45,476 nucleotides of DNA from Armatimonadota bacterium (GTDB lineage Bacteria > Vulcanimicrobiota > Xenobia > RGZZ01): positions 1-45,476 of the forward strand of contig VGFD01000002.1 of the NCBI GenBank assembly GCA_016868975.1, written 5' to 3'. Position numbers and translations under genes: made by a program. The notes beneath the pieces were generated by a model, which was not told the origin of the DNA, searched no databases, and worked only from the letters and a program-made list of their open reading frames with translations. Shown here piece after piece: positions 2,337 to 19,711 of the stretch. Each line of letters begins with the position of its first letter. Position 1 is the stretch's first letter.

Positions 2337-4198
2337 TGCGGCATCTCCGAAAGCTCGCTCCAGCGCTCCATCGCCTGATCCAGGCGGCGGCTCAGCGTCT
2401 GCAGCTCGTCGTATAGTTTCTGGGTGCGCACGAAGTCGCTGGAATCTTTCGCCAGCAACCCCTCAACGACTTTGCGGCGCGCCTCAGCGGACTCGATCTC
2501 GGTCTCCAGCGTTTCCAGTTCGCGGCGCTCCCGCATGCTCATCTTGCGGGGCTTGGCGGCGCCTACCGCGGGTTGCAAGGGCGCGGGTCGCACAGGTCGT
2601 GCAACAGGCGCTTCGGGCGCTGCGGCCCGCAAGGCCTCGGTGGCGCTGTAATTTCCGGCATATTCCCGAACTTGCCCGTCGCCCTCAAACGCGAAGACCG
2701 ACTCCACCGTACGATCCAGAAAATAGCGGTCGTGGCTGACCACCACCAGGCATCCGGAAAACCCGTCGAGATAATCCTCCAGCCGCACCAGCGTGGGGAT
2801 GTCGAGGTCGTTCGTCGGCTCGTCCAGGATCAGCACATTGGGATTGCGCATCAGCACCCGCAGCAGGTACAGCCGACGGCGCTCGCCGCCGGAGAGCCGG
2901 CCGATGGGCACTTGCTGCAAAGGCCCGGAAAACAGGAACCGCTCGCACATCTGGGCCGCCGAGAGCGTCCGACCGTCCGCGGTGGGCACCGAATCCGATT
3001 CCTCGCGGACGTATTCGATGACCCGCATGTCGTCGTCAAGGGCGCGGCTCTCCTGATCGTAGTAGCCAATCGCGACGGTGGCGCCAGTGGAAATCTCCCC
3101 GCTGTCCGGCGCGAGCCTTCCCACCATCATCTCCAGCAGCGTGGTCTTGCCGCAGCCGTTGGGGCCGACAATTCCCACGCGGTCGCCGCGCTTCAGCGTG
3201 TAGGAGAAGTCGCGCACGATGGAGCGCCCGTCAAACCGCTTGCTTACGTGGGTCATTTCGATGGTCCGGGTCCCCAGCCGGCGGCCGGCCACGTTGATTT
3301 CCACGTGCCGCGCCGCTTCCTCGCGGGGGGCGGACACCAGCGACTCCGCGCGCTCCACGCGGGCCTTCTGCTTTGTGGCGCGTGCCCGTGGGCCGCGGCG
3401 CAGCCAGTCCAGTTCGCGGCGAATCAGGTTGGCGCGCTTCTCATCCGCGGCCGCGCGCTGCGCCTCCTGCTCGGCCTTTTTCTCGAGATACGCCTCATAA
3501 TTTCCCACGAACGTCTGCACGCGACCCCGCTCGATTTCCAGGGTGCGGGTGGTGATGCGATCCAGGAAATAGCGGTCGTGTGTCACGAGGAGCAAGGTGC
3601 CGGTGAAGCGGCGCAGATATTCCTCCAGCCACGCGACGGCGTCGGTATCCAGATGGTTGGTGGGCTCGTCGAGGATCAAGAGGTCGGGCCGCGTGATGAG
3701 CGCGTGCGCCAGGGCCACCCGCTTGCGCTGGCCGCCGGAGAGCGTCCCGATTCGCGCGTCCGTGTCGACGATCCCCAGCCGGTTGAGTACCGTGCGGGCG
3801 TTGGTCTCCAGGTCCCAGGCGCCCGCCGCCTCCAACTGGTCGGCAAGGCGGGACAGTTTTTGCGGATCGCTGGCCGCTGCATGGCACGCCGCCTCGTAGT
3901 CATGCAGCAAGCGCATCGTATCATTGCTGGCCACGAAGACCGCGTCCAGCACGGTGAGCGACTCGTCGAACAGCGGATTTTGCGCGAGGAATGCCACGCT
4001 GGTGCCGCGCGCCACCACCACGCGTCCGCTGTCCGGCGCCTCGCGGCCGGCGATAATCCGCAGCAGCGTCGACTTGCCGCAGCCGTTCGCGCCAATAATC
4101 CCCGCCTTCTCGCCGTAATCCACGCCCAGGGTGATCCCTTCCAGGAGCGGCTCCGCGCGGTAGCTGCGGCTCAGGTTTTCCAGGCTGATGATGGACAC
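2333..4198 (-). CDS. ABC-F family ATPase (Uup-like)
   Basis: Two NBDs (GANGCGKS/LSGGQ/LDEPTNHLD and GPNGCGKT/LSGGE/LDEPTNDLD), PtIM linker, C-terminal coiled coil ending RWSEL, no TM segments. Confidence 0.93.
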   Translation of the reverse strand: MSIISLENLSRSYRAEPLLEGITLGVDYGEKAGIIGANGCGKSTLLRIIAGREAPDSGRVVVARGTSVAFLAQNPLFDESLTVLDAVFVASNDTMRLLHDYEAACHAAASDPQKLSRLADQLEAAGAWDLETNARTVLNRLGIVDTDARIGTLSGGQRKRVALAHALITRPDLLILDEPTNHLDTDAVAWLEEYLRRFTGTLLLVTHDRYFLDRITTRTLEIERGRVQTFVGNYEAYLEKKAEQEAQRAAADEKRANLIRRELDWLRRGPRARATKQKARVERAESLVSAPREEAARHVEINVAGRRLGTRTIEMTHVSKRFDGRSIVRDFSYTLKRGDRVGIVGPNGCGKTTLLEMMVGRLAPDSGEISTGATVAIGYYDQESRALDDDMRVIEYVREESDSVPTADGRTLSAAQMCERFLFSGPLQQVPIGRLSGGERRRLYLLRVLMRNPNVLILDEPTNDLDIPTLVRLEDYLDGFSGCLVVVSHDRYFLDRTVESVFAFEGDGQVREYAGNYSATEALRAAAPEAPVARPVRPAPLQPAVGAAKPRKMSMRERRELETLETEIESAEARRKVVEGLLAKDSSDFVRTQKLYDELQTLSRRLDQAMERWSELSEMPQ

Positions 4199-4218
4199 GG
4201 GCGGGGCTTCCCCAAATG

Positions 4219-4268
4219 AAAGGGGCCTCCTGCGGGGCTGCGTTGCGAGCCGCGCGGGAAGCCTCTTT
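4219..4268 (-). terminator. Possible intrinsic terminator downstream of the EF-hand gene
   Basis: Imperfect inverted repeat AAAGAGGCTTCCCGCG...CGCAGGAGGCCCCTTT followed by CATTT on the minus strand. Confidence 0.3.
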
Positions 4269-4314
4269 GAGATACCAGAGTGAGAGATGAGGAGAGAGAT
4301 GGACCTGTGTTGAC

Positions 4315-5262
4315 CTACTTTCCTTTCCCAGTGCCTTCGTTGCGCATTGAAGTGTTCTCGATGGTAATCGTCTGCTTGCTGCCGTCGTTCATCGTGATCT
4401 CGACCTGCGATCCGTTGGGGAACGACGCGCCCGGCTTCTTGAAGCGGAAGTGGGGGCGGTCGCCGTTGCCCACGCCCGAGAACTTGCCCTCGTCGAGGAC
4501 CTGGCCGTCGGGGCTGAGCACCCGCACCGACTGTACCTTCCCCGCGTAGTTCGGGGGGAGCAGGATGACGAGGTTGCCGTCCGAGTCCGAGGTCGGCTTC
4601 CAGAGGAAGCCCGCGGGCGCGTCCGGGTTGGCGATCGTCGGGCCCTTGGGGGAAGCCGGGCCTCCGGCGGCCGGCGCGGCGCCGGCGTCAGCGGCGGGCT
4701 TCTCGTTGTTGGGGTCGTTGGCGCCGCCCAGCAGGTCGAGCACCGCGCTGGCGTTCTTCGGGTCGAGCTCCTTCAGGGAGGCCTTGCTGTCGCCCGCGGT
4801 CAGCTCGTCGAGGGACTGCACGCCGTTGGCGCCGATGACGCCCGCGCCGGCCGCCTTCAATTCCTGGTTGTTGAGCTTGCCGTCGTTGTTGGCGTCGAAC
4901 TGGCGGACCAGGCCGGCCAGGCGATCCGCGGTGGCCTTCTCCTGCTCGTCCACGCCGCCGCTGCCGTCGAGGTCGTTGTTGCCGCCGAAAGCCTGCAGCC
5001 CGTCGCGAGTGTCCTTCACCTCTTTGTCGGACAGGTCGCCGTTCTTGTCAAAGTCAAAGGCCAGCACGCCGTCGCGAGCGCCGTCGTAGCGGTTGTCGCG
5101 ATCCAGGTCGAGGCCATAGCCCTGCACGTCGCGGCCGTCCTGCGTGCGGACGCTCGCGTCGACGGTCTTCACACTGGTCGTGGTGGGCCCGGTCTCGCTC
5201 TTCTGGGCGGGCTGTGTCGTGGTGGGGCGGTTCTGGGTAGAGGTGGAGATGCTGCTCGTCAT
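4315..5262 (-). CDS. EF-hand-like (DxDxDG) protein with Thr/Ser-rich N-terminus and uncharacterised C-terminal domain
   Basis: Start reassigned to ATG 5262 (RBS AGGAGGGA at 5278-5271). Ca-loops DLDRDNRYD, DFDKNGDLSDKE, DLDGSGGVDEQE, DANNDGKLNNQEL. Confidence 0.8.
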   Translation of the reverse strand: MTSSISTSTQNRPTTTQPAQKSETGPTTTSVKTVDASVRTQDGRDVQGYGLDLDRDNRYDGARDGVLAFDFDKNGDLSDKEVKDTRDGLQAFGGNNDLDGSGGVDEQEKATADRLAGLVRQFDANNDGKLNNQELKAAGAGVIGANGVQSLDELTAGDSKASLKELDPKNASAVLDLLGGANDPNNEKPAADAGAAPAAGGPASPKGPTIANPDAPAGFLWKPTSDSDGNLVILLPPNYAGKVQSVRVLSPDGQVLDEGKFSGVGNGDRPHFRFKKPGASFPNGSQVEITMNDGSKQTITIENTSMRNEGTGKGK

Positions 5263-5308
5263 TTCTGTAGTCCCTCCTGCGCTGCCGACGTCCTCGTTTC
5301 GTGGACAC

Positions 5309-5373
5309 AGCATATCCCCCGAGGGTTGGGGGGCGGTTTGGAAGCGGCTTGGAGATGTTAACATTGTGTAACA
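5309..5373 (-). promoter_or_regulatory. Promoter with -10 TATGCT, three 11-bp-period repeats and a TGTTAA-N5-TGTAAC box
   Basis: Minus strand CCAAGCCGCTT/CCAAACCGCCC/CCCAACCCTCG (5352-5320), then TATGCT (5314-5309). Plus strand TGTTAACATTGTGTAAC at 5356-5372. Confidence 0.5.
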
Positions 5374-5411
5374 CAGGGCGGGTCGGTGGACAGATTGAAC
5401 AGATCGCGCCC

Positions 5412-6572
5412 ATGGATCTCCCCCCCGAAGTAGTCCGCCTGGTGGACGATCTCTACTGCGGCGTGGACCCTGCCGACGCGCTCGCGCTGGCCGAGGACTG
5501 GCGCGCGCGCAGCATCCGCACCCTCGACCGTGAGGCCGGCGTCTTCGTCTCGACAGCGGATGAGTCGGCCCTGGAGAACGCGCGCTACCTCCTGGAGCGG
5601 CTGAGGTTCCCGGTGGCCGGCGGCGAGCCGGCGGCCCGCAAGGTCATGACCGACGTAGCGGAACTGGTCCCGATGCTGCGGCGCGTTTCCCGCAACCGCC
5701 TGCGGGTGTGGTTCGTCGACGCGGAGCCACTCGACGCGCTGCTGGTGGCCGGCGTGGCGGTCGCGCAGGGGCGGGGACAGGCGGAGGCGGTGGTGCGGCG
5801 CCTCTCGCCGGCCGCGCTGTACATGCGCGATCTGTACGAGCACTTCCGCCAGCGCGCGCCGTCCTTGCCGGACAGCGTGCGAGAGGAAGTCCGCCACGGC
5901 TTCGACCGCGTCACCGACGGCCTGGAGCTGCTGGGGACCTGGCTGACGGACGGCCGCAAGGAGACACTGGAGCGCGCGCTGTGCGCCTTGCGCGCGGGCT
6001 GCGAGGCGGTGTCCCAGGTGGAGCGCTGGCGGGCGGCTGGCGAGCGCACTCGGGCCGCCGTGCCGGTGGGTGGCGAGCCGCTGGGCGCGCTGCTCGACGC
6101 GGCGCGCTGCGGGGACGCGGACCGTGCGGCGCGGGCGGCCCGCTTCCGCGAGGTCTGGATGCCGCGGCTCTATGGCTTGCTTGAGCAGTTCCGCCAGGAG
6201 CTGCCGCTCAATCTGGAGACGCGCGATGTCTTGCTCGAAGAATTAGGGGAGGCGCTCGGCGCGCTCGACGGCACGCTGGAGTCCTCCGACGCGACCGAGC
6301 TGGAGTCGGTGGTGAAGCAGCTGGAGCAGGCGTTCGCCAGCCTGCGGGGCGGCGTGGTGCGCGTCGAGCAGATCGGTGACGCCCGGCTGCAGGAGATGGC
6401 GCGTCTGATTTCCGGCGTGTGGTTCGGCACCGTGCCGCTGCTTGGATTGCTGACCCGCATGCCGGAGCTGATGCGCGACGACGACGCGGACGAAATCGAG
6501 GAGGCGGCCCGCCATCTGGATTACTATCTGCAGACCGGCGAGCGCTTCCACGTGCAGGCGGCGCTGGATTGA
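5412..6572 (+). CDS. Hypothetical alpha-helical protein
   Basis: Long ORF with GC-rich third positions. Probable start ATG 5412 (MDLPPEV). No motif recognised. Confidence 0.7.
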   Translation: MDLPPEVVRLVDDLYCGVDPADALALAEDWRARSIRTLDREAGVFVSTADESALENARYLLERLRFPVAGGEPAARKVMTDVAELVPMLRRVSRNRLRVWFVDAEPLDALLVAGVAVAQGRGQAEAVVRRLSPAALYMRDLYEHFRQRAPSLPDSVREEVRHGFDRVTDGLELLGTWLTDGRKETLERALCALRAGCEAVSQVERWRAAGERTRAAVPVGGEPLGALLDAARCGDADRAARAARFREVWMPRLYGLLEQFRQELPLNLETRDVLLEELGEALGALDGTLESSDATELESVVKQLEQAFASLRGGVVRVEQIGDARLQEMARLISGVWFGTVPLLGLLTRMPELMRDDDADEIEEAARHLDYYLQTGERFHVQAALD

Positions 6573-6982: not shown

Positions 6983-9900
6983 CTACAGCTTCGAAACCAT
7001 GTCGTCCAGGTCGCGGTTGAGCCACTGCAGGCCCGCCTTGACCTGGTCGGCGTTTTCCTTCTGGCCGCCCTTGCCCGCGTTCTGGTAGAGCGTGATGTCC
7101 GAGCGGTCGCGCAGGGTCTGCATTTCGCCGCTCTTCACCGTCTCCGCGATCTCGTTCTCGTGGGCGCGCTCGCCGTACGGCAACTGCGCGGCCTGGAACG
7201 CCACGTGGTTGAGCATGGTGACGTCGTTCAGGCCCGTCTTGTCGGTGGCCGCGATCAGTCCGGCCAGCACTTTCTTCAGACCCGCGATCGACTCGCACTC
7301 CTCGCCGCGGAAATCCGCGAGGTAAAGGGCCAGCGTCAGCAACGGCACCGCGTTGGCGCCCGCCATGCGGGTTCCTCCGTCGGGACGGTCGGCCAGCGTG
7401 AGCGTGTACTCCTTGTAAAGCTGGTGCGTGACGTCGGCGCCCTTGTCGGTCTTGGAGGCAATCGCCTGGCGGGTGGCCTCGCGAATCGCTTCCGCCTTCT
7501 CTTCGGAAATCTCCGGCACGCCGTAGAATTTCGCGATGTCCTCGCGCGACATTTCCGCCACCTGCGGCGTGTTGCAGGAAATTCGCTGGCGCGTCGGCGC
7601 GAAGCCCACGAACGGATTCTTGGGATCGGCGAACGCGCGGTCCTTGCCGGCCTTCCAGCCCACGTTGTGCGCATCGGCGGCCGCGGATTCCACCAGCTTG
7701 CCGACCACGTCTTCCAGCACGGCCGAGCCGCTCTTGCCCTGAATGGCTTCCAGATGCTTGTAGAGCCACTCGGCGGCCGGCTGCAGCGTGTACTCGTCGA
7801 GCTTCGCCAGCTCAAGACCGTTTTCGTGGATGGTGTGCCAGCCCTGGAAATCCGTGCGCACTTGCGTCTTTACCGTGCGTCCGGTGGACTTGGGCGCGTC
7901 GATCTGGTGGTCGAACGAGCGCTCGCCCACCACCACCTGCGAGGCCAGGAACGCCACGCGGTGGACCTTTTCCAGCTCTTTCACGCCGAGGTCGTCCTTG
8001 CCGCCCAGCATGTTGTCGAGCACGTAGCGGAGGTCCTCGCCGCGCCGGAAATCCTGCAGATACAGGGATAAAGCCAGCGGGGCCACGGCCACTTCGCCGG
8101 ACAACCGCACCGACTGCTGCTGGTCGAGCATTTCCGCGTAGGTCAGGAAATGCGGGTCGAAAATCGTCGAGCCGACCGCCGCCTTCTTCACCGCGTCCAG
8201 CTTCCACTCGGGGATGTCGGCCTGCGGCGCCTGCGCCTTGAGCCACTCGGCGATCTGCGCGTTGCTCATGCCCGCCACGTCGCGCGTGACCAGGACGCGC
8301 TCGGGCGCGAATCCCAGAAAAGCGCTTTCCGGATCCATCAATTCGCGATCCTTGGCGCGCTTCCAGATCTGGTGTGCGTCCGCCGCGGCCTCGTCGAGCA
8401 TCCTCGAAAGCACCGCGTTGAGCAGGCGCTCCTTGGTGGTGCCGGTGACCATGTCGGCCATCGCGTCCACCAGGTGGGCCAGGCGATTGTCTTCGGAGAG
8501 CAGCGGGGTGATGTCGTTCATCGCCACTTCCAGGCCGCCGAAGGTGACCTGGCCGCACTCGCCGGGAATGCGCTGCGGCGCGGCGCCGGAATATTTCGTG
8601 GGTTTGCCCCAGAAGTCGATGGGTTTTCCGTCCGAGCCCGGCACGCCGACCTTGCCCAGGTAGAAGCCCTTCTCGTCGTCAAGAATTCCGGCCGGATCGA
8701 CCGGCGTATTCGCCAGCGGATAAAAGTCTTTGTAAAAGGGATCGACGGCCTTGAAGCCGTTCTCTCGCAGGATGCGGCCCTCTTTGTCCAGCTTTGCCAG
8801 GAACGGCATGCTATGGTCTTCGATGGCCAGCGGGTTGCCCTTGTCGTCGCGCAGGATGTCGCCGTCGTCGGTGCGCACCGGGCGGCCCTTTTTGTCGCGC
8901 TCGATGGCGTACTTCATGGGCTGGCCATTTTCGTCGAGGCGCAATTTCATCGGAGAGAAGAAGCCGAGATCCGGCGACACCACCTGGATCTTGTTCCACT
9001 CCTGGGCCCTGGTTAGCTCGTTTTCGAAGGTTTCCTCGTGCCCGTCCAGGATGGCGTCCAGGCAGCCTTGCAGGTGGCGCGTCTGGTGGTCGCGCTTCCA
9101 CAGGTCGAAGCAGCCCTGGTAGGTGACCTTGGTGTGGCGGCAGTCGGATTGCCCCAGCATGATCTCCACCGCGAGGTTCGTCTGGCCACTGCCGGAAATG
9201 CGGCTGTGGCACACGTCGTGGCGCGCCTGGGTGAACTTGTCGCGCTTCTTGTGGACGTCCGAGTCGAGGTCTTCCATGAGCCGCTCGCCGGTCTTCTGAT
9301 CGTAGAGCGCGAATTTCGTGTCGATGTACTTGTGCACGCGGGAGTGAAAGACGGGGAAATCTTGCGGCCGGTCGATCTTGTCCAATCCCAGGTGGAACAT
9401 CACCTGGCGCAGTGCGCGCACGGTCTGGCGGTTGATGGGGGTGTCGGCCACGCCGCCGCGGCTGACGAATTTCCACGAGCCGCCAACGAACTTGGAGTTG
9501 AAGACCTCCTGGAAGGTGGTGGCCTTTTTGAAGATGCGGTCGGTAATTTCTTTCTGGCGCAGATCTTCCGGCGACAGCGACGAGTCGGCGGCGCTGAAGT
9601 TCTTCAACGAGCGCAGCTCGGCCTGGGCGTTCGTGATGAACGCATTGAGATCGAAGCCAGGCTTTGGCGGGAAGCCGCCTTCGGTGCGCTCGGCCAGCTT
9701 GCGCACCATGAAGTTGACCAGACCGACGTCCTTGCCTTCTTCCTTCTTGGTTTCGCCGAACCACTGCAGGTTGTCCGAGGTGGACTGCAATTCCCAGCCC
9801 GCCTTTGCCGCGTTCAGCAGCCGCGGCAGCAGGTCATGCACTGTCTGCGGCTGGTCGAGGATGGTGGCCAGCTCGGTCTGCGTGGCGAGATTCCAGAAAT

Positions 9901-11656
9901 CGGTGCTGGTGCGGCCGCCCTCGCGCATCACTGAGTACTGCACGAGCGGCGCGGCCAGGTTGGCGGTGCGCTGGTTGCCCAGGGCCAGCTCGTTGTACAG
10001 CCAGTTGATGCCGGGATAATATTCGAAATCCACGCCGAACCCGGCGAGGTAATAATCGCGCGACACCTCAAGCGCCTTGCGGCTGATTTTCAGGAGGTTG
10101 CGTCCGCACGGAGCGCCGACGTTCTTCTCGACGAATTTCACCAGGTCGCGGTCCACGTTGCCGCGGTCGGTGACGTCCGTCATCAGCTCGTCGATGCGGG
10201 CATTGCAGACGGCCTCTGTGATGGCGCCGTCCAGCGGCTTGCCGGTGAGCGCGCGGCCCAATTCGAATAATTTTTCACGGGTGGCCTTGCCGCGGACCAT
10301 CTTGCCGGCCAGCTTGTCCAGGGCCGAGGAGGCGGCCGACCGCACTTCCTCCTTGAACATGGCCCACTCGTCCGGTTTCTTGCTGCTCAACGTCTCGGCG
10401 GCCTTGAAGGGATCCGCGGCATCCAGAATGGCCGCCGCGTCCCAATTTTCACGCTTGAGACCGGTGGCGTCCTCGACGAATTTCAAGGTGTCTTCGACCG
10501 CCGCTGCGTCCCTTGTCCGCGCCTTGAGTCCCTCGACGCGCGCGTTGAAGCGTGCGGCGGTCTTTTCCAGCGCGAGGTCGCCGACGCGCTTGCCGTCAAG
10601 ATTCCAATCCACGGTGGGGACGTTGGAGACTTGCGCGAACAGCGCCGTCAGATCGGCGGATTTTACCTTGCCGTCGATCTGCTTTTCGGCCTCCTGGTAG
10701 ACCATCTTGTAGGCCTTGCCCATGCCGCCCAGGACCTCGCCATTGATGCCGAGGTTTCGATAAATGTTGCGGCGGCTCGCCTCAATGAATCCCATGGGCC
10801 CGTGGTGCACGGTCTGCACCCGCTCGTTGATATACGCCTCGGACTCGCGGATGCTTTCCTTTACCTTTTTCTGCTTGTTCAGGCAGACGATGTAATATTC
10901 GCGGGGAATCTCGTAGCTCGGAAGATAATCGTTCTTCTGCCGCATCTCCTCGTAGAAGCGGGCGGAGTCGGCAAAGGCGCCCTGGTCCTGGTAGGCCTCC
11001 ATCAGCATGGTGACCATGTCAGGATCAAGCTTGACGCCTTCGCGGTTCTGTTTCTTCTCGAACGCGCGCAGCTCGTCCACGGTGACCTTGCGCTTGGAGC
11101 CGTCCTTCTCCTTGAGCAGCTTGCCCAGCTCGGCCAAATACTTGCCGTGCTGCTGGGCCCACTCGAATACCTTCGGCTGGCGCTCGGCGATGGTTTCGCG
11201 CGCGTGCTCGGGCGGGATTTCCAGGAAATCCCCGAGGGGCCCGAGGTCGCGCGGCGGGATCGAGGAAAGCGGATTGACGAATTGCGGCTCGTCGGTGACC
11301 GGCTCGGGGTTGAGCGCCTTGAGAAGGTCGGGCTGTTGAATCTGTATCTGGCCGTTAGGGCCCACCTGCACCGGGATGAGCGTCCCGTCGGGGCCGACGA
11401 CTTGCAGGCCGTGGTCGGTCATCTGCAGGGTGATGGGCGGCGCCTGCAGGGAGCGCTCCTCGGTGGGCGTGGCGGGCGCCTGGGGAGCGACCTTCGCTTC
11501 AGGAAGGGGCGGCGGAGCGGGCGCGGCGGTGGTGGCCAGCGGCCCGGAGAGCGTCACCGCATCCTTCGGGGTGACGGTTGCCTCGGGCGCTTCCGGGGAG
11601 GTCCCCCGGGTCTGCCGGGCCGGAAGAAGAATCGTGGTCTGTTTGATGGGGTCCAT
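6983..11656 (-). CDS. 1557-aa multidomain protein: DUF4071/MAP3K TRAF-binding (TPR-S)-like region, putative Cys-His-Asp domain, tandem C-terminal repeat
   Basis: LDPDMVTMLMEAYQD, YYIVCLNK, GEVLGGMGKAYK, YYLAGF...YYPGINWL, DFWNLAT, WELQSTSDNL; DCRH...EDH...VDPFY; two copies of AAADAH..WK..KDR. Confidence 0.75.
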   Translation of the reverse strand: MDPIKQTTILLPARQTRGTSPEAPEATVTPKDAVTLSGPLATTAAPAPPPLPEAKVAPQAPATPTEERSLQAPPITLQMTDHGLQVVGPDGTLIPVQVGPNGQIQIQQPDLLKALNPEPVTDEPQFVNPLSSIPPRDLGPLGDFLEIPPEHARETIAERQPKVFEWAQQHGKYLAELGKLLKEKDGSKRKVTVDELRAFEKKQNREGVKLDPDMVTMLMEAYQDQGAFADSARFYEEMRQKNDYLPSYEIPREYYIVCLNKQKKVKESIRESEAYINERVQTVHHGPMGFIEASRRNIYRNLGINGEVLGGMGKAYKMVYQEAEKQIDGKVKSADLTALFAQVSNVPTVDWNLDGKRVGDLALEKTAARFNARVEGLKARTRDAAAVEDTLKFVEDATGLKRENWDAAAILDAADPFKAAETLSSKKPDEWAMFKEEVRSAASSALDKLAGKMVRGKATREKLFELGRALTGKPLDGAITEAVCNARIDELMTDVTDRGNVDRDLVKFVEKNVGAPCGRNLLKISRKALEVSRDYYLAGFGVDFEYYPGINWLYNELALGNQRTANLAAPLVQYSVMREGGRTSTDFWNLATQTELATILDQPQTVHDLLPRLLNAAKAGWELQSTSDNLQWFGETKKEEGKDVGLVNFMVRKLAERTEGGFPPKPGFDLNAFITNAQAELRSLKNFSAADSSLSPEDLRQKEITDRIFKKATTFQEVFNSKFVGGSWKFVSRGGVADTPINRQTVRALRQVMFHLGLDKIDRPQDFPVFHSRVHKYIDTKFALYDQKTGERLMEDLDSDVHKKRDKFTQARHDVCHSRISGSGQTNLAVEIMLGQSDCRHTKVTYQGCFDLWKRDHQTRHLQGCLDAILDGHEETFENELTRAQEWNKIQVVSPDLGFFSPMKLRLDENGQPMKYAIERDKKGRPVRTDDGDILRDDKGNPLAIEDHSMPFLAKLDKEGRILRENGFKAVDPFYKDFYPLANTPVDPAGILDDEKGFYLGKVGVPGSDGKPIDFWGKPTKYSGAAPQRIPGECGQVTFGGLEVAMNDITPLLSEDNRLAHLVDAMADMVTGTTKERLLNAVLSRMLDEAAADAHQIWKRAKDRELMDPESAFLGFAPERVLVTRDVAGMSNAQIAEWLKAQAPQADIPEWKLDAVKKAAVGSTIFDPHFLTYAEMLDQQQSVRLSGEVAVAPLALSLYLQDFRRGEDLRYVLDNMLGGKDDLGVKELEKVHRVAFLASQVVVGERSFDHQIDAPKSTGRTVKTQVRTDFQGWHTIHENGLELAKLDEYTLQPAAEWLYKHLEAIQGKSGSAVLEDVVGKLVESAAADAHNVGWKAGKDRAFADPKNPFVGFAPTRQRISCNTPQVAEMSREDIAKFYGVPEISEEKAEAIREATRQAIASKTDKGADVTHQLYKEYTLTLADRPDGGTRMAGANAVPLLTLALYLADFRGEECESIAGLKKVLAGLIAATDKTGLNDVTMLNHVAFQAAQLPYGERAHENEIAETVKSGEMQTLRDRSDITLYQNAGKGGQKENADQVKAGLQWLNRDLDDMVSKL

Positions 11657-11716: not shown

Positions 11717-11839
11717 TTGGCCATGGCTCGGGCGTTGTCCTTGTACTCCCTCCCGTCGCGTTGGCCAGACGGGTGCGGTTCACGGGGCGCCCGCGCGCTC
11801 CTGGAGGCATCTCTCTGACAGGTTCGAACTACCGTGGGC

Positions 11840-14332
11840 ATGAGTGAGGCCACGGTATCCCTGGTAGTACACGGCTCGCACGAAACCCGCGAGTACCCTC
11901 TGGAGCCGGGGCGGCGCGTCACCATCGGCGCTGACCCGAGCAACGACGTTGTCATCGGCGAGGACGGCGTGCAGCCTCGCCACGCCGCCATCGAGTGGGA
12001 CGATGAAGGACCGGCCGTCGTCGACGTCGCCGCCCCCACCGACGTCTTTCTGAACGGGCAGCGGGTGGCCCGCGGCCCCCTGGAGAACGGCGACTTCATC
12101 AAGCTGGGCACCGCGCGGCTGGTGTTCCACGAGAGCGCGGCCGTGAGCGGCGCCGCGCTGCGCGGAACGGTGCGCGGGCGCGTCGTCCGCGTCGTCCTGG
12201 AGTCTGACTGCTTGCGCATCGGGCGCGGCGGGGACAACGACGTCGTGCTCGACCATCCCCAGGTGGCGCGCCGTCACGCCCGCGTCGAGAGGACCGCCGG
12301 GGGCTGGACGCTGCTCGACGAAAAGGACATGTACGGCACCTTTCTCAACGGCAAGCGGCTGGACGGCGCCGCGCCGCTCCAGGAAGGGGACCGCTTCACC
12401 ATCAGCGCGTTCCACTTCCGCCTGGTTGGCGACGCGCTGGAGTATTACAGCGAGGCGGGCAATGCGCGGGTGGACGTGCTCAACGTGCAGCGGGTGGCGG
12501 GCGGCAGCCGCATCATTTTGCACGACGTGTCGTTGTCGATTTACCCGCGCGAGTTCGTGGCGCTGGTGGGCGCCTCCGGCGCCGGCAAGAGCACGCTGAT
12601 GAACGCGCTCTCGGGATTTCGACCAGCGGATGCGGGCCGTGTTCTTCTCAATGGCACCGACTACTACGCGCACTTCGACAGTTTCCGCGCGAGCCTGGGA
12701 TTCGTGCCCCAGGACGACATCATCCACCGCGAGCTGACCGTGGAGCGCGCGCTTCATTATGCCGCCTGCCTGCGCCTGCCGGAGGACTCTTCCGAGGAGG
12801 AGCGGGCCCAGCGCATCAACGAGGTGCTCCACGATCTGCACCTGACCGAGCGCCGCGACACGCCCATCGCCAATCTTTCCGGAGGCCAGCGAAAGCGGGT
12901 CAGCATTGGAGTGGAGCTGCTCACCCGGCCGCGGATATTCTACCTGGACGAGCCCACGTCGGGCCTCGACCCCGGCATGGAAACCGAGCTGATGCGGATT
13001 TTCCGCAACCTCGCCGACAAGGGCCACACCCTGGTGATCGTCACCCACGCGACGAAAAACATCACGCTGTGCAACAAGATCGCGTTCATGGCCGAGGGGG
13101 GATATCTGGCGTTCTACGGCTCGCCGCAGGAGGCCCTGGAATTTTTCCGGGCCGACGACTTCAGCGACATCTACTTGAAGATCCAGAATGAGAGGACGCC
13201 GGAGCAGTGGCAGAACGAATATCGCGCGTCCCCCTACTACCAGCGCAACGTAGGGAACCGGCTGGCCGAAGTGGAGACCCTGGCCCGCGAGGCGGCCGCC
13301 GAAGCGCGCGAGGAAGGCGCCGTGGAGCGCGCCGCGCCGCGGGCCTCCGCATTGCGCCAGTACGGTATTCTCACCCGGCGCGCTCTCGAGATTCACCTGC
13401 GCGATCGGGGGAACCTGGGGATCTTGATGGGCTCGGCGCTCTTGATCGCGCTCTTGATCCCGTTTCTGTTTCCGGACCCCAACCTGCTGCAGCCCTTTGT
13501 GTTCGCGGATTTCAATTTTCCGCCGGCCGCCGACGGTCCGCGCGATCCGTCGTCAATTACGGACAACTACGGCAAGGCGCGCCAGATCGTGTTTTTCACG
13601 ATTATCGCCGCCATTTTCTTCGGCGTGAACAACGCCATCCGCGAGATCGCCCGGGAGATTCCAATCTATCGGCGCGAGCGCACGGTCAACTTGCAGATAC
13701 CTCCTTACGTGTTTTCCAAGCTGACCGTGATGGCGGCGCTCTGTCTGACGCAGGTTGCTTTGCTCACGCTGGTCATCGGTTTCCACCTCAAGGTGCCGGA
13801 GGCGAGCCCGCTGTTTTATGCGAAGCTGCTCGCCCTGCTCTGGCTGGGCTCGCTGGCCGCGATGGCCATGGCGCTCGCTTTTTCCGCGTTTGCCAGCAAT
13901 GAGAACAAGGCCGGCTCGGCGCTGCCGGTGCTGATCATACCGCAGATATTCCTGACCGGCATTTTTCCTCGCCTGACCGGGACGGCCGCGCTGGTCACCA
14001 ACTTCGGGCTGACCAAATGGATGTATGAGACTCTCCACCACCACCTGCGGCTCTGGAACATCTTTCCCTCGCCGCAGACTATCACCAATCCGCAGGTTGG
14101 GGCCGGCCTGCAGATGATGGCCAACGACGCCAGCGTCGATTGCGCGGTCATTCCCTGCAAGGCTCAGATGGCGCTGGCCGACCTGCAAGACCTGATCGAC
14201 GCCGGGGCGAAAGCCATGCCGCCGCCGGGCTATTCCTACCTCCACTACATGACCGTGTTGCTGGGCTTCTTCGTGTTTTTCACCGCGCTCACGTGCTGGT
14301 TCCAAAAACGCAAGGACTGGCAGCGGGATTAG
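11840..14332 (+). CDS. FHA-FHA-ABC ATPase-ABC2 permease fusion (Rv1747-like architecture)
   Basis: Two FHA folds (IGxxxxNDVV...HA...FLNG), GASGAGKS, LSGGQRKR, LDEPTSGLD, C-terminal TM helices with RER motif. The start could be GTG 11834. Confidence 0.92.
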   Translation: MSEATVSLVVHGSHETREYPLEPGRRVTIGADPSNDVVIGEDGVQPRHAAIEWDDEGPAVVDVAAPTDVFLNGQRVARGPLENGDFIKLGTARLVFHESAAVSGAALRGTVRGRVVRVVLESDCLRIGRGGDNDVVLDHPQVARRHARVERTAGGWTLLDEKDMYGTFLNGKRLDGAAPLQEGDRFTISAFHFRLVGDALEYYSEAGNARVDVLNVQRVAGGSRIILHDVSLSIYPREFVALVGASGAGKSTLMNALSGFRPADAGRVLLNGTDYYAHFDSFRASLGFVPQDDIIHRELTVERALHYAACLRLPEDSSEEERAQRINEVLHDLHLTERRDTPIANLSGGQRKRVSIGVELLTRPRIFYLDEPTSGLDPGMETELMRIFRNLADKGHTLVIVTHATKNITLCNKIAFMAEGGYLAFYGSPQEALEFFRADDFSDIYLKIQNERTPEQWQNEYRASPYYQRNVGNRLAEVETLAREAAAEAREEGAVERAAPRASALRQYGILTRRALEIHLRDRGNLGILMGSALLIALLIPFLFPDPNLLQPFVFADFNFPPAADGPRDPSSITDNYGKARQIVFFTIIAAIFFGVNNAIREIAREIPIYRRERTVNLQIPPYVFSKLTVMAALCLTQVALLTLVIGFHLKVPEASPLFYAKLLALLWLGSLAAMAMALAFSAFASNENKAGSALPVLIIPQIFLTGIFPRLTGTAALVTNFGLTKWMYETLHHHLRLWNIFPSPQTITNPQVGAGLQMMANDASVDCAVIPCKAQMALADLQDLIDAGAKAMPPPGYSYLHYMTVLLGFFVFFTALTCWFQKRKDWQRD

Positions 14333-14353
14333 ATTGGGTGTACAATAGCCAAC

Positions 14354-16192
14354 GTGCGACTCAAGAAACGGGGAACGGCGCTGGCCACGGTCTTGCTCGC
14401 CTCGGGGGTATTGCTGGTGGTCTGTATGGCGCTGGGCACCATGGCCATTCTCGATCTGGACGTGTCGAGCTCCTACTCGATGCGCTCCCAGAGCTTGCTG
14501 ATGGCCGAGGCGGCCGTCAACCAGCTCATCGCCGAGATGGATCGGGCGCAGGAGCGGGAGATTGAGGAGGGCGGCGGCAGCGGCCTGGAGATGAGCGACC
14601 TGCCCCGTCTTGACCTGCTGGCCCGTTTTCGGGACCCGGTGTTTCCCGCCGGTGCCAACCGTTTTCCGGGAGAGGTCTTCATCACCTTCGACACGCGCCA
14701 CCAAATGGGCCACTATTCGGTGGACAACTCCTACAACGAAGCCCCGGCCGCCGGCTGGCTCGATCGGGGCACCAGCAACCGCTCAGTGCCGCCCTTTTCG
14801 ATTGACCTCCTGATCCAGACGAAGATAGGAAGCCGCGCCACCTGGTACCAGGCCACCCTGCGGCGGCGCTGGCCATACGTGCTGTGCACCCCGGGGCGGG
14901 TCACGCTGATGGGCGCGCCGACCTACGCGAGAGACCGCAAGACCACCACGGTCGTGCCCTCGGAGGTGACCGGCAACATCTTCAACCTCCCGGGGGTATC
15001 GTTCAGCCCGTCGCCGCCGCCGGACGCGTCCCCTCCGCCGCCGCCGGACACGGACCAGAGCATCTTCGTCGACGTGAACCTGATTGACAACCTGCTGGGC
15101 GTGCTGCCGCCCAACACCGCCACGGTGAGCGTGGGGGGAGAGTCGTCGGTGAAGGTGCTGCTGTCCGACGGGAGTTACGGCCCCTCGGTGCGGGTCACCA
15201 GCATCGGCAACATGCTGCTCGGGTCGGTGGACGTGGGCGCCGAGGATCCCAACGCGGGCATCGACGTGTACCCGGGCAACAGGGCGGTGGGCTCCTTCCG
15301 CCAGGACGTGAAGCCGTTCAACCTGGAGAAGAGCTTGCAGCGCGCGTTCCAGCTGCCCAGTTACGGAAATTTCCGGGAAGTCCCGCTGCAGGCGGACCCG
15401 CCCGGCTGGCGGCCCGAGCCGGTGCCGGGGCCGGAGTCGGCCGAGGATCCCAACAGCGAGTCGACGACGCCGTCGCCTTCCCCTTCCCCCAGCGAGGAGC
15501 CGGAGGATCCCGGCCCGCCGCCCTTCTTCGTGCTCTATGAGAATCTCGTTCTCAGCGGGCCGCCTCCGCCGGAGGACGAATCATTCAATTTTGACGAGCG
15601 AGGGTGTTACCGGATCAGCACGCCGGCCGGCAACCGCTACATCGTCAACGGCAACCGGCGCAATATTTATTACACGGGGAAAGGAATCGAGCTGCACGAC
15701 TGCATGCTCTACATCGCCGGAAATCTGGATCTGTCTTCCACGCTCCCGCTGGCGGGCGGCGCGGCGACAGTTCCGCCGCTGCGCGGCAATAACGCGACCC
15801 TCATCGTGGACGGCACGCTCATCGTCAACAACGGCTCGCTGAGCGGCAGCGAGGATGGCATGGTGATTTATTGCCGGCGTCTGGTGACGGCCGCGCAGGG
15901 CACCTATCACGGCTTGATCATGGTGCAAAAGAGCGCCGCCATCTGTCCCGCCTTCCCGGGCGCGAAAATCGAGATTCAAGGCGGCATCGTGTGCGGCGGC
16001 GACCCGGTGCAGCTTTTCGCGCTCAACCCGAATTTCGATCCGGAAGCTCAGGGCGGCGGCCCGGAGGAAGTGGACGTCCGTCTCGACGGGCTCCATCTGT
16101 GGTCCACGCACTTGAAGTACGATGCCCGCTACCTCAAGACCTTGAACCGCCTCGGCCCGCTGACCCTGCTGGCCCTGCGCCAGATCGAGTGA
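14354..16192 (+). CDS. PilX/GspK-like large minor pilin-type protein
   Basis: N-terminus KKRG-TALATVLL (class III-like, no Glu+5), SLLMAEAAV PilX motif, Pro-rich linkers, C-terminal beta-helix-like repeats. Confidence 0.7.
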   Translation: MRLKKRGTALATVLLASGVLLVVCMALGTMAILDLDVSSSYSMRSQSLLMAEAAVNQLIAEMDRAQEREIEEGGGSGLEMSDLPRLDLLARFRDPVFPAGANRFPGEVFITFDTRHQMGHYSVDNSYNEAPAAGWLDRGTSNRSVPPFSIDLLIQTKIGSRATWYQATLRRRWPYVLCTPGRVTLMGAPTYARDRKTTTVVPSEVTGNIFNLPGVSFSPSPPPDASPPPPPDTDQSIFVDVNLIDNLLGVLPPNTATVSVGGESSVKVLLSDGSYGPSVRVTSIGNMLLGSVDVGAEDPNAGIDVYPGNRAVGSFRQDVKPFNLEKSLQRAFQLPSYGNFREVPLQADPPGWRPEPVPGPESAEDPNSESTTPSPSPSPSEEPEDPGPPPFFVLYENLVLSGPPPPEDESFNFDERGCYRISTPAGNRYIVNGNRRNIYYTGKGIELHDCMLYIAGNLDLSSTLPLAGGAATVPPLRGNNATLIVDGTLIVNNGSLSGSEDGMVIYCRRLVTAAQGTYHGLIMVQKSAAICPAFPGAKIEIQGGIVCGGDPVQLFALNPNFDPEAQGGGPEEVDVRLDGLHLWSTHLKYDARYLKTLNRLGPLTLLALRQIE

Positions 16193-17270: not shown

Positions 17271-18713
17271 TCAAACGCGCCAGGCGTCGTAGGTGTGGCC
17301 CAGCTTCAGCATGGTGTCGACCCGCTCGAACAATGCGTTTATGGCCTTCGGGTGGAGCAGGTCCTCTAATTCCGCGGTAATTTCCTTGCGGTGTTTTTTC
17401 AGGCTTTTCAGCGCCGCGGTGGCCTCGTCGTCGAGCTTGACCTGCTTGTCGAAATCGTAGTTGATGCCGCCCTGCTCCTTGTTTTGCAGCGGGAAGCAGA
17501 GGCCGTGATCGATGGGAATCGCTTCGACGTCCTGTTTGCCCGCCACCATCCAGTTGCCGTTGTGGCGGTCGGTGTTGCCCAGCACGTTGTCGAGCACCGC
17601 CATGCGCCGATAAGAGGAGTTGCGCGCGCTGGAGGAAATCTGGGAAGCGCGCTTGGAATCCTCGGCCTGCTCGACGCCGTTGAGCCACCACATCATCGCG
17701 CCGTTCTGGCGTCCCATCTTGCGGTAGACGGTGGGCTGGACCTTGCCGTAGTGGCCCATCCAGCGATCCACGACGTAGGCGGCCGCCTCCCGCTTGCCCT
17801 GATTTCCGGCTTCGATCTGATCGCGCAGAACGCTCTTGTCCTCACCCGCCGAAGGCTTCCACATGGCCTGCGCGCGGTTGCTCAGACCCACGTGGGTGCT
17901 GGCGTTGATGCCGGTGCCAATGCTCTGGGTTTGGGCGATGCGCGCGTCGGTGTCACGCAGGTACGCTTCCGCCACCGCGTATTCGGCCGGCGTGCTGGGG
18001 ATTTTCATCATCGGCAGCGCGGCGAAATGCGCGGCGGCGCCGCCGATGGGGCCGGCCACCGGGCCGGCCACCCGCAAGCCCAGGAAACGCATGGTTTTCG
18101 CGAGCCATCCCGTCGACCGCTCGGGGATGGTGACGGTCACCGTCGGCTCATTCGCGGGCATGCGCAGCATCGCTTCGGCTTCGTGCGGGTGGAGCAGCGT
18201 TTCCTCGCGGTTGCTTGCGCGAACCACGCCATCAGGCAGGCTCTCCATGAGGTGCGGGGCATTGGCCACGCGCAGCGACGGGGGCAGCGTGCTGGCGCGC
18301 TTGTGCTCGTGCGAGATGGCGCGCTTTTCGGTCTGCAGCGCGCGCTGCACGGCGGAGACGTCCCCACCCTGCTCGCGCATCCGGCGCACAATCGCGGCGG
18401 CAACCTGGTTGGGCGCCCCAAATCCCACGCTGCCCGCGGCGAACAGCGCGAGGCCCTCCTGGAGCGCGGCCAGCCGATCGGTGGACCTGTCTTCGGTGGC
18501 GCGCACGGCGGCGTGGACGATGCGCAGCGCTTCCTGCTCGTCCTTCGAGCCGGCCTGGCGCACCACGCTGTCGACGTCGGCAAGGGCGTCCTCGGCGTCC
18601 AGCACCTGGCGCGTGGTCGCGCGAAACCAGTGGGGCTGCTGCGCGCGCTGCAGCCCCTGGCGCGCGATGGTGTCGAGGCGTGGCTCCACGTGGGAAAGGT
18701 TCAGCAGCCGCAA
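17271..18713 (-). CDS. Type II PI4-kinase-like (PI3/4K superfamily) kinase with N-terminal helical extension
   Basis: MWKP (ATP Lys), REAAAYVVD, VQPTV, LDNVLGNTDRHNGN catalytic loop, IDHGLCFP. RBS AGGAG before the TTG. Confidence 0.85.
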   Translation of the reverse strand: MRLLNLSHVEPRLDTIARQGLQRAQQPHWFRATTRQVLDAEDALADVDSVVRQAGSKDEQEALRIVHAAVRATEDRSTDRLAALQEGLALFAAGSVGFGAPNQVAAAIVRRMREQGGDVSAVQRALQTEKRAISHEHKRASTLPPSLRVANAPHLMESLPDGVVRASNREETLLHPHEAEAMLRMPANEPTVTVTIPERSTGWLAKTMRFLGLRVAGPVAGPIGGAAAHFAALPMMKIPSTPAEYAVAEAYLRDTDARIAQTQSIGTGINASTHVGLSNRAQAMWKPSAGEDKSVLRDQIEAGNQGKREAAAYVVDRWMGHYGKVQPTVYRKMGRQNGAMMWWLNGVEQAEDSKRASQISSSARNSSYRRMAVLDNVLGNTDRHNGNWMVAGKQDVEAIPIDHGLCFPLQNKEQGGINYDFDKQVKLDDEATAALKSLKKHRKEITAELEDLLHPKAINALFERVDTMLKLGHTYDAWRV

Positions 18714-18805
18714 AGCGGACTCCTGGGCAGGTGATCGGGCGCACTTTCCGCGGGTCGCCGGGGCCTTACCATGTCCACAGACACTTGCAGGGAGGCAGAA
18801 AGCGC

Positions 18806-19711
18806 ATGACGTCCTGGTTTGAGCCTTCGTCCTTCATCGCGGCGACCATGATGGCCGCCCTTTGGCCGAATTCGACACCCTCTCCCCAGGAAGATGCCCT
18901 GGGCCGCACCCCGCTGCATCACGCGGCCGCGGGCGGCGACGTCGAGCGGGTGGTGGCGCTCATCGGACAGGGATGCTCGGTGGACGGCGCCAGCGACGAG
19001 GGACTCACCGCCCTGCACGAAGCCGCCTGCTGCGGCCGCAGGGAAGTCGCCGAGGCGCTGCACCGTCTGGGCGCCGATCTGAACCGCCGCACGGACGCCG
19101 GCATGACGCCGCTCGCCCTGGCCGTCGTGGGCGGCCACCTCGCCCTGGCCGGCGACCTGCTCGCCTGGGGAGCGCGCGTCAACAAGACCAACCGCGCCGG
19201 CGAGACGCCCCTGCACATCGCGGCCGAGCGCGGCTGGGCTCGCATCGTGGAAACGCTGGTCAGGCGCGGCGCCGCGCTTGAAGCGGTGGATTGCGAGGGC
19301 TTCACCGCGCTGCACTTCGCCTGCCGCTGCGGCCAGACCGGCGCGGCGCGCGTGCTGCTGAGCCACGGCGCGTCGATGGAAGCGCGGACCGACGATGAGT
19401 GCACGCCGCTCATGGTGGCGGCGTCCGGAGGATGGCTGGAAATCGTCTCCGCGCTGGTCTGGCGAGGTGCCTCGCTGCACGCCTGGGATCACTTGCGCGC
19501 GACCGCCCTGCACCACGCCGCCAGCGCCGGGCACCGCGCGGTGTGCGAGATGCTCGTGCGCTCGGGGGCCGACCTGTCAGCCCGCGACGCGTTGGGCAAG
19601 ACGCCTGCCCAGGCGGCGGCCGGCTACCCGGATGTGGAGGGGATGCTCACGCCGCGGCCGCCTCGCGCGAACAGCGGCGAGGTGTCGTTCAAGACGCTGC
19701 GCAGCGCGTAG
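18806..19711 (+). CDS. Ankyrin-repeat protein (7 full repeats plus 1 partial)
   Basis: Repeated G-x-T-[PA]-L-H-x-A-A...GA at 33-aa period. Start ATG 18806 with RBS GGGAGG. Confidence 0.93.
   Translation: MTSWFEPSSFIAATMMAALWPNSTPSPQEDALGRTPLHHAAAGGDVERVVALIGQGCSVDGASDEGLTALHEAACCGRREVAEALHRLGADLNRRTDAGMTPLALAVVGGHLALAGDLLAWGARVNKTNRAGETPLHIAAERGWARIVETLVRRGAALEAVDCEGFTALHFACRCGQTGAARVLLSHGASMEARTDDECTPLMVAASGGWLEIVSALVWRGASLHAWDHLRATALHHAASAGHRAVCEMLVRSGADLSARDALGKTPAQAAAGYPDVEGMLTPRPPRANSGEVSFKTLRSA

Follow-up and report, generated by a model that had tools for sequence, protein, structure and literature searches.

A predicted transglutaminase-like Cys-His-Asp domain joined to an ASK1-like repeat region in a 1557-residue protein of an Armatimonadota bacterium

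The longest open reading frame (ORF) in a 45,476-nt stretch of DNA from an Armatimonadota bacterium (GTDB lineage Bacteria; Vulcanimicrobiota; Xenobia; RGZZ01; GenBank assembly GCA_016868975.1, contig VGFD01000002.1, positions 1 to 45,476, forward strand; this whole stretch is called the window below) encodes a putative protein of 1557 residues, here P0001. Residues ~700-1055 of this protein carry a Cys, a His, and an Asp that are invariant or nearly so among its relatives, and lie just downstream of a helical repeat region of the TPR-S type. We consider it reasonably probable, from conservation and structural modelling, that residues ~700-1055 make up a thiol enzyme domain, capable of catalysis and of transglutaminase-like (papain-like, Peptidase_CA) fold, which represents an unmodelled family and forms a recurrent module with TPR-S. 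P0001 is probably a thiol hydrolase or transferase coupled to a sensor.

The Cys-His-Asp domain

A first-pass annotation of the window, made without database searches, had proposed a transglutaminase/papain-like catalytic domain at 8700-9200, with C839, H948, and D972 of P0001 as its Cys, His, and Asp. The three strings it relied on are present in P0001 (GQSDCRHTKVTYQGCFD from residue 835, EDHSMPF from 946, and AVDPFY from 970), and the residues are exactly where it put them, with minus-strand codons TGC (9140-9142), CAT (8813-8815), and GAT (8741-8743), all three inside that span. The span does hold the putative catalytic core, but the folded domain is larger, extending over residues ~700-1055 (nt 8492-9559). 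The ORF and the features of the domain are:

6983..11656, minus strand: whole ORF, 1557 residues (P0001); stop-free translation, GC content at third codon positions (GC3) 0.86, longest ORF of the window
8492..9559, minus strand: predicted transglutaminase/NAT-like Cys-His-Asp domain, residues 700-1055, a single compact alpha+beta unit
9428..9496, minus strand: conserved Gly-rich loop, residues 721-743 (S721, G726, G734, D738, N742, R743)
9137..9145, minus strand: D838-C839-R840, each residue conserved in 160/160, at a helix start; C839 is the proposed nucleophile
8813..8821, minus strand: E946-D947-H948, with E946 in 144/145 and H948 in 145/145; H948 is the proposed general base
8732..8743, minus strand: D972-P973-F974-Y975, with D972 in 141/144; D972 is the proposed third residue of the triad

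Since P0001 contains 10 Cys and 29 His, a Cys...His...Asp spacing is by itself not beyond chance; it is conservation across relatives that lifts the triad far beyond it. A word-indexed protein search with residues 700-1060 as query returned 15 proteins, one of which, from an Armatimonadetes metagenome-assembled genome, carries the source name DUF4071 protein. In the alignment of these 15 close homologues (37-62% identity), C839 is the sole invariant Cys of the 10, and H948 and D972 are invariant too. A domain profile built on four sequences (the window's and those of three relative loci) matched 165 clusters (50% identity) at E<=1e-3 among 1.84 billion representative proteins, 117 of them at E<=1e-10 and 31 at E<=1e-30; a search with a 28-row profile, in which the 8000 top candidates were scored, gave 9 proteins.

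The counts in the list above, and those that follow, are from a domain hidden Markov model (HMM) alignment of 163 sequences, the 15 close homologues included, and refer to the residues aligned at each column. The exceptions at D972 are two Cys and one Tyr. F974 is found in 136/145 (the other 9 have Trp) and Y975 in 143/145; outside the motifs, T826 is found in 154/160, E795 in 143/151, and H802 in 138/151, while in the Gly-rich loop the counts are 109/111 for G726 and 110/119 for G734. In a MAFFT alignment of 72 sequences, reaching down to 19% identity, the only invariant residues are G726, D838, C839, R840, H948, D972, and F974. Conservation of the triad in homologs, on which the first-pass proposal hung, is thus observed directly: in 15/15 and 72/72 sequences for the two smaller sets, and in 160/160, 145/145, and 141/144 for C839, H948, and D972 in the largest.

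AlphaFold2 models of residues 700-1060 were made from a 15-row alignment (predicted local distance difference test score, pLDDT, 79.4; predicted template modelling score, pTM, 0.82) and from the 72-row alignment (pLDDT 95.3, pTM 0.93; one compact domain, with no segment below 50). The secondary structure is identical in the two: a helical N-terminal part is followed by a long helix, a second helix, and a beta-rich part. In both models C839 (model residue 140) opens helix 140-172 (residues 839-871). H948 (model His249) lies within strand 247-250 (residues 946-949), and D972 (model Asp273) two residues past strand 269-271 (residues 968-970), with a hairpin partner strand, 253-257, between the His strand and the Asp strand. 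The Gly-rich loop is disordered in the 15-row model and has a pLDDT of 87-89 in the 72-row model.

A papain-like core is defined in PMC10318531 by a Cys at the N-terminus of a helix, followed by strands bringing in a His and a polar residue. The AlphaFold2 models of the Cys-His-Asp domain show the order and the secondary-structure placement of papain-like/transglutaminase-like proteins (Pfam clan CL0125, SCOP d.3), and a structure scan against 48,161 PDB representatives, in which rows within 1 Z unit count as ties, superposes the domain on solved members of CL0125/d.3. Eighteen of the best 20 rows are NATs, transglutaminases, LapG, or related thiol proteases; the other two are S. pyogenes TglA and an axonemal chain. 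Rows further down include vasohibins, PeiW/PeiP, PNGase, Rad4/XPC, protein 4.2, Ceg10, RavJ, and SpvD, and menin is also among the matches. Several of these matches (3isr, 3kd4, LapG, PNGase, and the NATs) are grouped in one transglutaminase-like cysteine protease superfamily in PMC4866520. The evidence for a transglutaminase-like fold of residues 700-1055, as modelled, is good, because the scan list is consistent, the three invariant residues are canonically placed, and the two models agree; in this respect the arrangement first proposed, a Cys-bearing helix followed by His and Asp, has held up.

The repeat region, the rest of the protein, and the gene's surroundings

The rest of P0001 can be divided as follows:

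11282..11656, minus strand: Pro/Thr/Ala-rich low-complexity N-terminus, residues 1-125, without a hydrophobic segment (from composition and hydropathy)
9587..11281, minus strand: TPR-S/MAP3K_TRAF_bd-like (ASK1-like) helical repeat region, residues 126-690 (from family-level matches)
7817..8455, minus strand: C-terminal repeat 1, residues 1068-1280, 30% identical to repeat 2 (E 2e-28)
7064..7750, minus strand: C-terminal repeat 2, residues 1303-1531; the two are tandem repeats of ~240 residues

The repeat region is recognizable mainly through its relatives. In P0001 itself, the Pfam scores for TPR-S (20.6 bits) and MAP3K_TRAF_bd (16.3 bits) are below the cut-offs of 27.6 and 24.1, and cover only residues 525-641. 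Comparison of consensus lines indicates that TPR-S is split in the window's subfamily by an insertion of ~190 residues, at roughly 318-519 (10090-10740, minus strand), which is probably why Pfam catches only its C-terminal third here; in relatives of 700-800 residues TPR-S is contiguous. Relatives do exceed the cut-offs (e.g., P0027 with 51.9 bits and P0133 with 65 bits). TPR-S is found in 27/28 aligned relatives (E<=1), and TPR-S or MAP3K_TRAF_bd is found upstream of the Cys domain in 35/56 mid-size relatives (E<=1e-4) and in 5/14 giant relatives (E<=1e-5); one or the other is also present in 10/51 further relatives (E<=1e-6). A 72-row family profile matches human ASK1/MAP3K5 over one stretch of ~260 residues (5ulm_A, E 5e-11; 8qgy_A, E 8e-11), as well as generic TPR and PPR designs. 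Internal repeats, suspected in residues 126-700 from L-x-x-F-V-E-x-x-T-G strings, were not found by self-BLAST.

The co-occurrence of the two domains bears on a further suggestion of the first-pass annotation, that two domain types associated with eukaryotic MAP3Ks are joined in this kinase-less bacterial protein. For the upstream domain this stands at the family level, by the TPR-S/MAP3K_TRAF_bd counts and the ASK1 match just given. For the Cys domain, which had been likened to the EDR1/CTR1 type, it can be upheld only for the broad superfamily: the claim holds for one domain only, since PF14381 (EDR1_CTR1_ARMC3_pept) gives no match in this genome at E<=10.

Typically, the relatives have a variable N-terminus followed by TPR-S and the Cys domain, in that order; the Cys domain stops within 60 residues of the C-terminus in 86/163 sequences. 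Two relatives have an added ligand-sensing domain (cNMP_binding in P0054, SLOG cluster 3 in P0135). Giant relatives of 2,500-5,000 residues (P0100, P0136, P0123, P0056, and P0049) combine the Cys domain with other domains, among them patatin; S9 peptidase/alpha-beta hydrolase; NUDIX; HATPase_c with HD and FAD/NAD-binding domains; and a small methyltransferase. The window's subfamily differs from the typical form by the TPR-S insertion, the Pro-rich N-terminus of ~125 residues, and a long C-terminal extension, the last also present in 8/15 close homologues, those of 1557-1679 residues. Each C-terminal repeat opens with the string A-A-A-D-A-H...W-K...K-D-R...D-P...F-x-G-F-A-P. The repeats have no Pfam match on P0001, repeat 1 has no usable ESM Atlas match, and among shorter proteins the repeat was found in two fragments only. 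No membrane or signal peptide-like segment was found in P0001, where the highest 19-residue Kyte-Doolittle mean over the whole protein is 1.36.

The gene appears to be monocistronic, flanked by a convergent gene at 5301-6572 (plus strand) and a divergent gene at 11834-14332 (plus strand). It was found in 2/401 sampled genomes of the phylum, one of them the window's own, and no relative of the domain was found among the plasmids, phages, and viral contigs searched. The window and the two relative loci L001 and L003 share no conserved neighbour gene, only generic ABC ATPase similarity.

The neighbourhood includes several genes with eukaryote-like signalling domains, at 4315-5364 (minus strand), 11834-14332 (plus strand), 17271-18713 (minus strand), and 18680-19711 (plus strand): an EF-hand protein, a double-FHA ABC transporter, a PI3/PI4-kinase-like protein (with a weak Fam20C match as well), and a six-repeat ankyrin protein. 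Flanking the region are two ORFs with good coding support, at 5301-6572 (plus strand; 423 residues, GC3 0.88) and 14354-16192 (plus strand; 612 residues, GC3 0.86), neither of which has a Pfam or PADLOC match. In L001, the homologue lies near a weak match to a C92 permuted papain-like amidase (4005-5054, plus strand; E 2e-4) and a clostripain-family (C11) protein (13588-14418, plus strand; E 4e-10), with several family-less ORFs between. The L001 contig (CAZYPN010000023.1) is labelled as an uncultured Burkholderiales bacterium, yet is placed in the same class as the window's genome; as label and placement disagree, it provides no evidence for transfer between phyla.

Possible function and alternative readings

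If the Cys-His-Asp domain is an active thiol enzyme, C839, at the N-terminus of the core helix, would be the nucleophile, attacking an amide or thioester carbonyl; H948, on its beta-strand, would serve as general base, with D972 orienting it, the geometry that we infer for the triad. A thioester acyl-enzyme intermediate would form; water would resolve it in a peptidase, isopeptidase, or deamidase, and an amine in a transamidase or acyltransferase. The favoured reaction would cleave or remodel an amide bond in a protein, as a peptidase, isopeptidase, deamidase, or transamidase does. The TPR-S repeat may recruit the substrate, or may gate the enzyme on binding a ligand, making the protein a single-chain and presumably cytoplasmic sensor-enzyme. 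This role for TPR-S is suggested by the position that it always takes, by its Pfam name, by the nucleotide-sensing domains added in a few relatives, and by an analogy with ASK1; as reportedly defined, TPR-S is a sensor within conflict systems centred on nucleotides. The acidic residue just before the Cys has a precedent: Bacillus Tgl may rely on a Cys together with the Glu directly preceding it (PMC10318531).

A more specific version seems possible, if doubtful: TPR-S and the Cys-His-Asp domain may constitute a prokaryotic sensor-effector module, in which a ligand at the ASK1-like repeat would free a thiol peptidase or transamidase for irreversible modification of cellular proteins in a stress, conflict, or cell-fate response. 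A peptide might serve as the ligand, or a signal derived from nucleotides; the relatives with cNMP-binding or SLOG domains hint at this. If so, this would be a protein-modifying switch of a new class, regulated within a single chain, and a thiol-enzyme counterpart of the ASK-type arrangement of TPR then kinase; it would imply that, before a kinase was attached in eukaryotes, the ASK-type sensor scaffold had already been coupled to enzymatic outputs that could be exchanged.

A number of results weigh against a transglutaminase-like thiol enzyme. No Pfam family was found over the Cys domain on P0001 (E<=1), on 121 relatives (E<=1e-4 to 1e-6), or among the 25 most common Pfam families of 28 relatives (E<=1), and NCBIfam gave 0 families on P0001. 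At E<=10, neither PF14381 (cut-off 27 bits) nor PF00797 (NAT; cut-off 22.8 bits) has any match in the genome, and PF01841 (Transglut_core; cut-off 23 bits) does not match this locus, although it passes its cut-off in 11 other genes of the same genome. An hhalign comparison of the 163-sequence family with those 11 Transglut_core domains gave a probability of 0.35% (E 0.17); its non-significant local alignment sets G-x-G-D-C-R-x-H-A of the family over the canonical G-x-C-x-x-F-A, Cys on Cys. Sequence searches of the PDB gave nothing for P0001 alone (0 at E<=1) or for a 15-row profile (0 at E<=10), and nothing credible over the Cys domain for a 72-row profile (best 1x19_A, E 0.27). Foldseek found no PDB match at E<=0.001 for either AlphaFold2 model, and in the structure scan folds of the NAT acyl-transfer type rank as high as those of the peptidase type. 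E795, H802, D806, T826, N827, Q847, and W853 are conserved equally, so that a different or additional site is possible, for example for a metal. Lastly, PADLOC found no convincing defence model in seven family members and three neighbour genes; the lone family match was to PbeA (E 0.0048), in the repeat region of P0048.

Some candidates were discarded. The best Foldseek rows (kinesins, PDE6, choline-binding domains) had TM-scores of 0.05-0.15. ESM Atlas rows pointing to Cas13/HEPN for the Cys domain had scores of 0.82 or less, within noise, and HEPN was rejected: there is an R-x4-H string (R812-H817), but H817 is not conserved.

Because no sequence model recognizes it, the Cys domain can be considered a distinct family within the superfamily, rather than a member of the EDR1, Transglut_core, or NAT families; it is a new family of the transglutaminase-like superfamily, without a Pfam or NCBIfam model. 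The EDR1/CTR1-type membership raised in the first-pass annotation, with two MAP3K-linked domains joined in one protein, is highly improbable. The broad superfamily is shared, but PF14381 is unmatched not only genome-wide but also, at E<=1, on P0001 and among the listed families of the 28 relatives, and the scores of LapG and PeiW in the structure scan do not exceed those of NATs and transglutaminases.

A NAT-like, acyl-CoA-dependent acyltransferase or amide synthase, in which acyl-CoA would load its acyl group onto C839 for transfer to an amine of a small molecule or protein, with no peptide bond being cut, could account for structural alignments that cover nearly the whole model (14-361) and for its layout, in which, as in NATs, the Cys helix is preceded by a helical bundle and the His and Asp sit in a beta-domain; the conserved Gly-rich loops might bind a nucleotide cofactor. 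It is nevertheless unlikely. TglA (Z 6.9), LapG (6.2), and transglutaminases (5.6) are inseparable from the NATs, being within the 1 Z taken as a tie; PF00797 has no match; ~75 extra residues separate the Cys helix from the His strand; and fusion to a protein-binding repeat would suggest a macromolecular substrate.

Two further readings concern what the domain does rather than which fold it has. The first-pass annotation had suggested an effector, and a secreted protein acting on a eukaryotic host or prey cell, like Legionella RavJ and Ceg10 or Salmonella SpvD, would fit with nearby genes for ankyrin repeats, a PI3/PI4-kinase-like protein, and an EF-hand protein, with the disordered Pro-rich N-terminus, and with the sporadic occurrence of the gene in the phylum (2/401). 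The lack of any signal peptide-like or membrane segment in P0001 argues otherwise, as do the 17 neighbouring ORFs scanned, among which no secretion-system gene was recognized, the TPR-S partner domain, a sensor by its Pfam name, and the absence of the domain from the plasmids, phages, and viral contigs; nothing points to secretion, and we regard this role as quite unlikely. It is slightly less probable still that the Cys, His, and Asp, together with E795, H802, D806, and E946, form a metal-binding or structural site in a non-catalytic scaffold like protein 4.2, XPC/Rad4, or ARMC3. In its favour, transglutaminase-like domains without activity are common, the structural matches include protein 4.2, XPC/Rad4, and menin, this family has numerous further conserved acidic and His residues, and calcium sites beside the active site recur in the superfamily (PMC4866520). 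A calcium site, though, is compatible with catalysis and not an alternative to it; inactive members, ARMC3 among them, have typically lost triad residues, as described in PMC10318531, while the triad of this family is essentially invariant over 160 diverse sequences, in the canonical order and on the canonical elements. A transglutaminase-like thiol enzyme coupled to TPR-S therefore appears the most reasonable description of these residues.

Comparison with known systems

The transglutaminase/papain-like superfamily has a great many members, but none of the sequence models tried captures this family. With 165 clusters it cannot be called rare, and it is set apart by its D-C-R, E-x-H, and D-x-F-Y motifs and Gly-rich loops, its length of ~355 residues, and its almost obligatory TPR-S/ASK1-like partner. 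A family model would annotate hundreds of proteins now called "hypothetical" or "DUF4071," including giants of 2,000-5,000 residues. The literature searched contained no description of a bacterial fusion of TPR-S with a thiol enzyme, or of the Cys family, although an earlier description is possible, for example in the supplements of PMC10318531.

The NAT family and NAT-like amide synthases (PF00797; 8oom, 7qi3, 1w4t, 2ija, 1e2t, 1gx3, 4guz, and 4dmo) are alike in layout and in Cys-His-Asp order. The window domain, however, is 6-13% identical to them in structural alignments, lacks a PF00797 match, and has a Cys-to-His spacing of 109 residues that accommodates an additional helix and two hairpins; its family also differs in having the invariant D-C-R motif and the Gly-rich loops, with TPR-S fused upstream.

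The transglutaminases compared (PF01841) were factor XIII (4kty), TG2 (3ly6), TG3 (8oxv/8rmx), TgpA (6g4h), 3isr, and 3kd4, along with LapG/C93 (4fgo). As in Transglut_core, the Cys of the family is in a small-residue context (G-x-G-D-C-R-x-H-A, against G-x-C-x-x-F-A in the 11 copies of this genome), and D-P-F-Y/D-x-F-Y recalls the D-P-T of canonical copies. The His motif is different (E-x-H-T/S, against the canonical H-A-W-V-E), as is the size (~355 residues, against ~110 for the canonical core).

In plant EDR1/CTR1 MAP3Ks, the PF14381 domain sits N-terminal to a kinase; P0001 has no kinase, and its partner domain is TPR-S. EDR1_CTR1_ARMC3_pept is said in PMC10318531 to resemble C71 and C93 peptidases, which are also among the structural matches of the Cys domain.

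The closest parallel for the upstream domain is the central regulatory region of ASK1/MAP3K5 (TPR part; 5ulm, 8qgy; PF13281, PF20308), to which it is homologous at the family level, although P0001 itself falls below the Pfam cut-offs and its TPR-S carries the ~190-residue insertion. The ASK1 repeat domain is immediately N-terminal to the enzymatic domain, as is that of P0001. If the repeat domain gates the enzyme, the family could provide a tractable bacterial system for studying sensing and signalling by ASK-type TPR scaffolds, with an enzymatic partner that is, in P0001, of a predicted thiol enzyme fold rather than a protein kinase.

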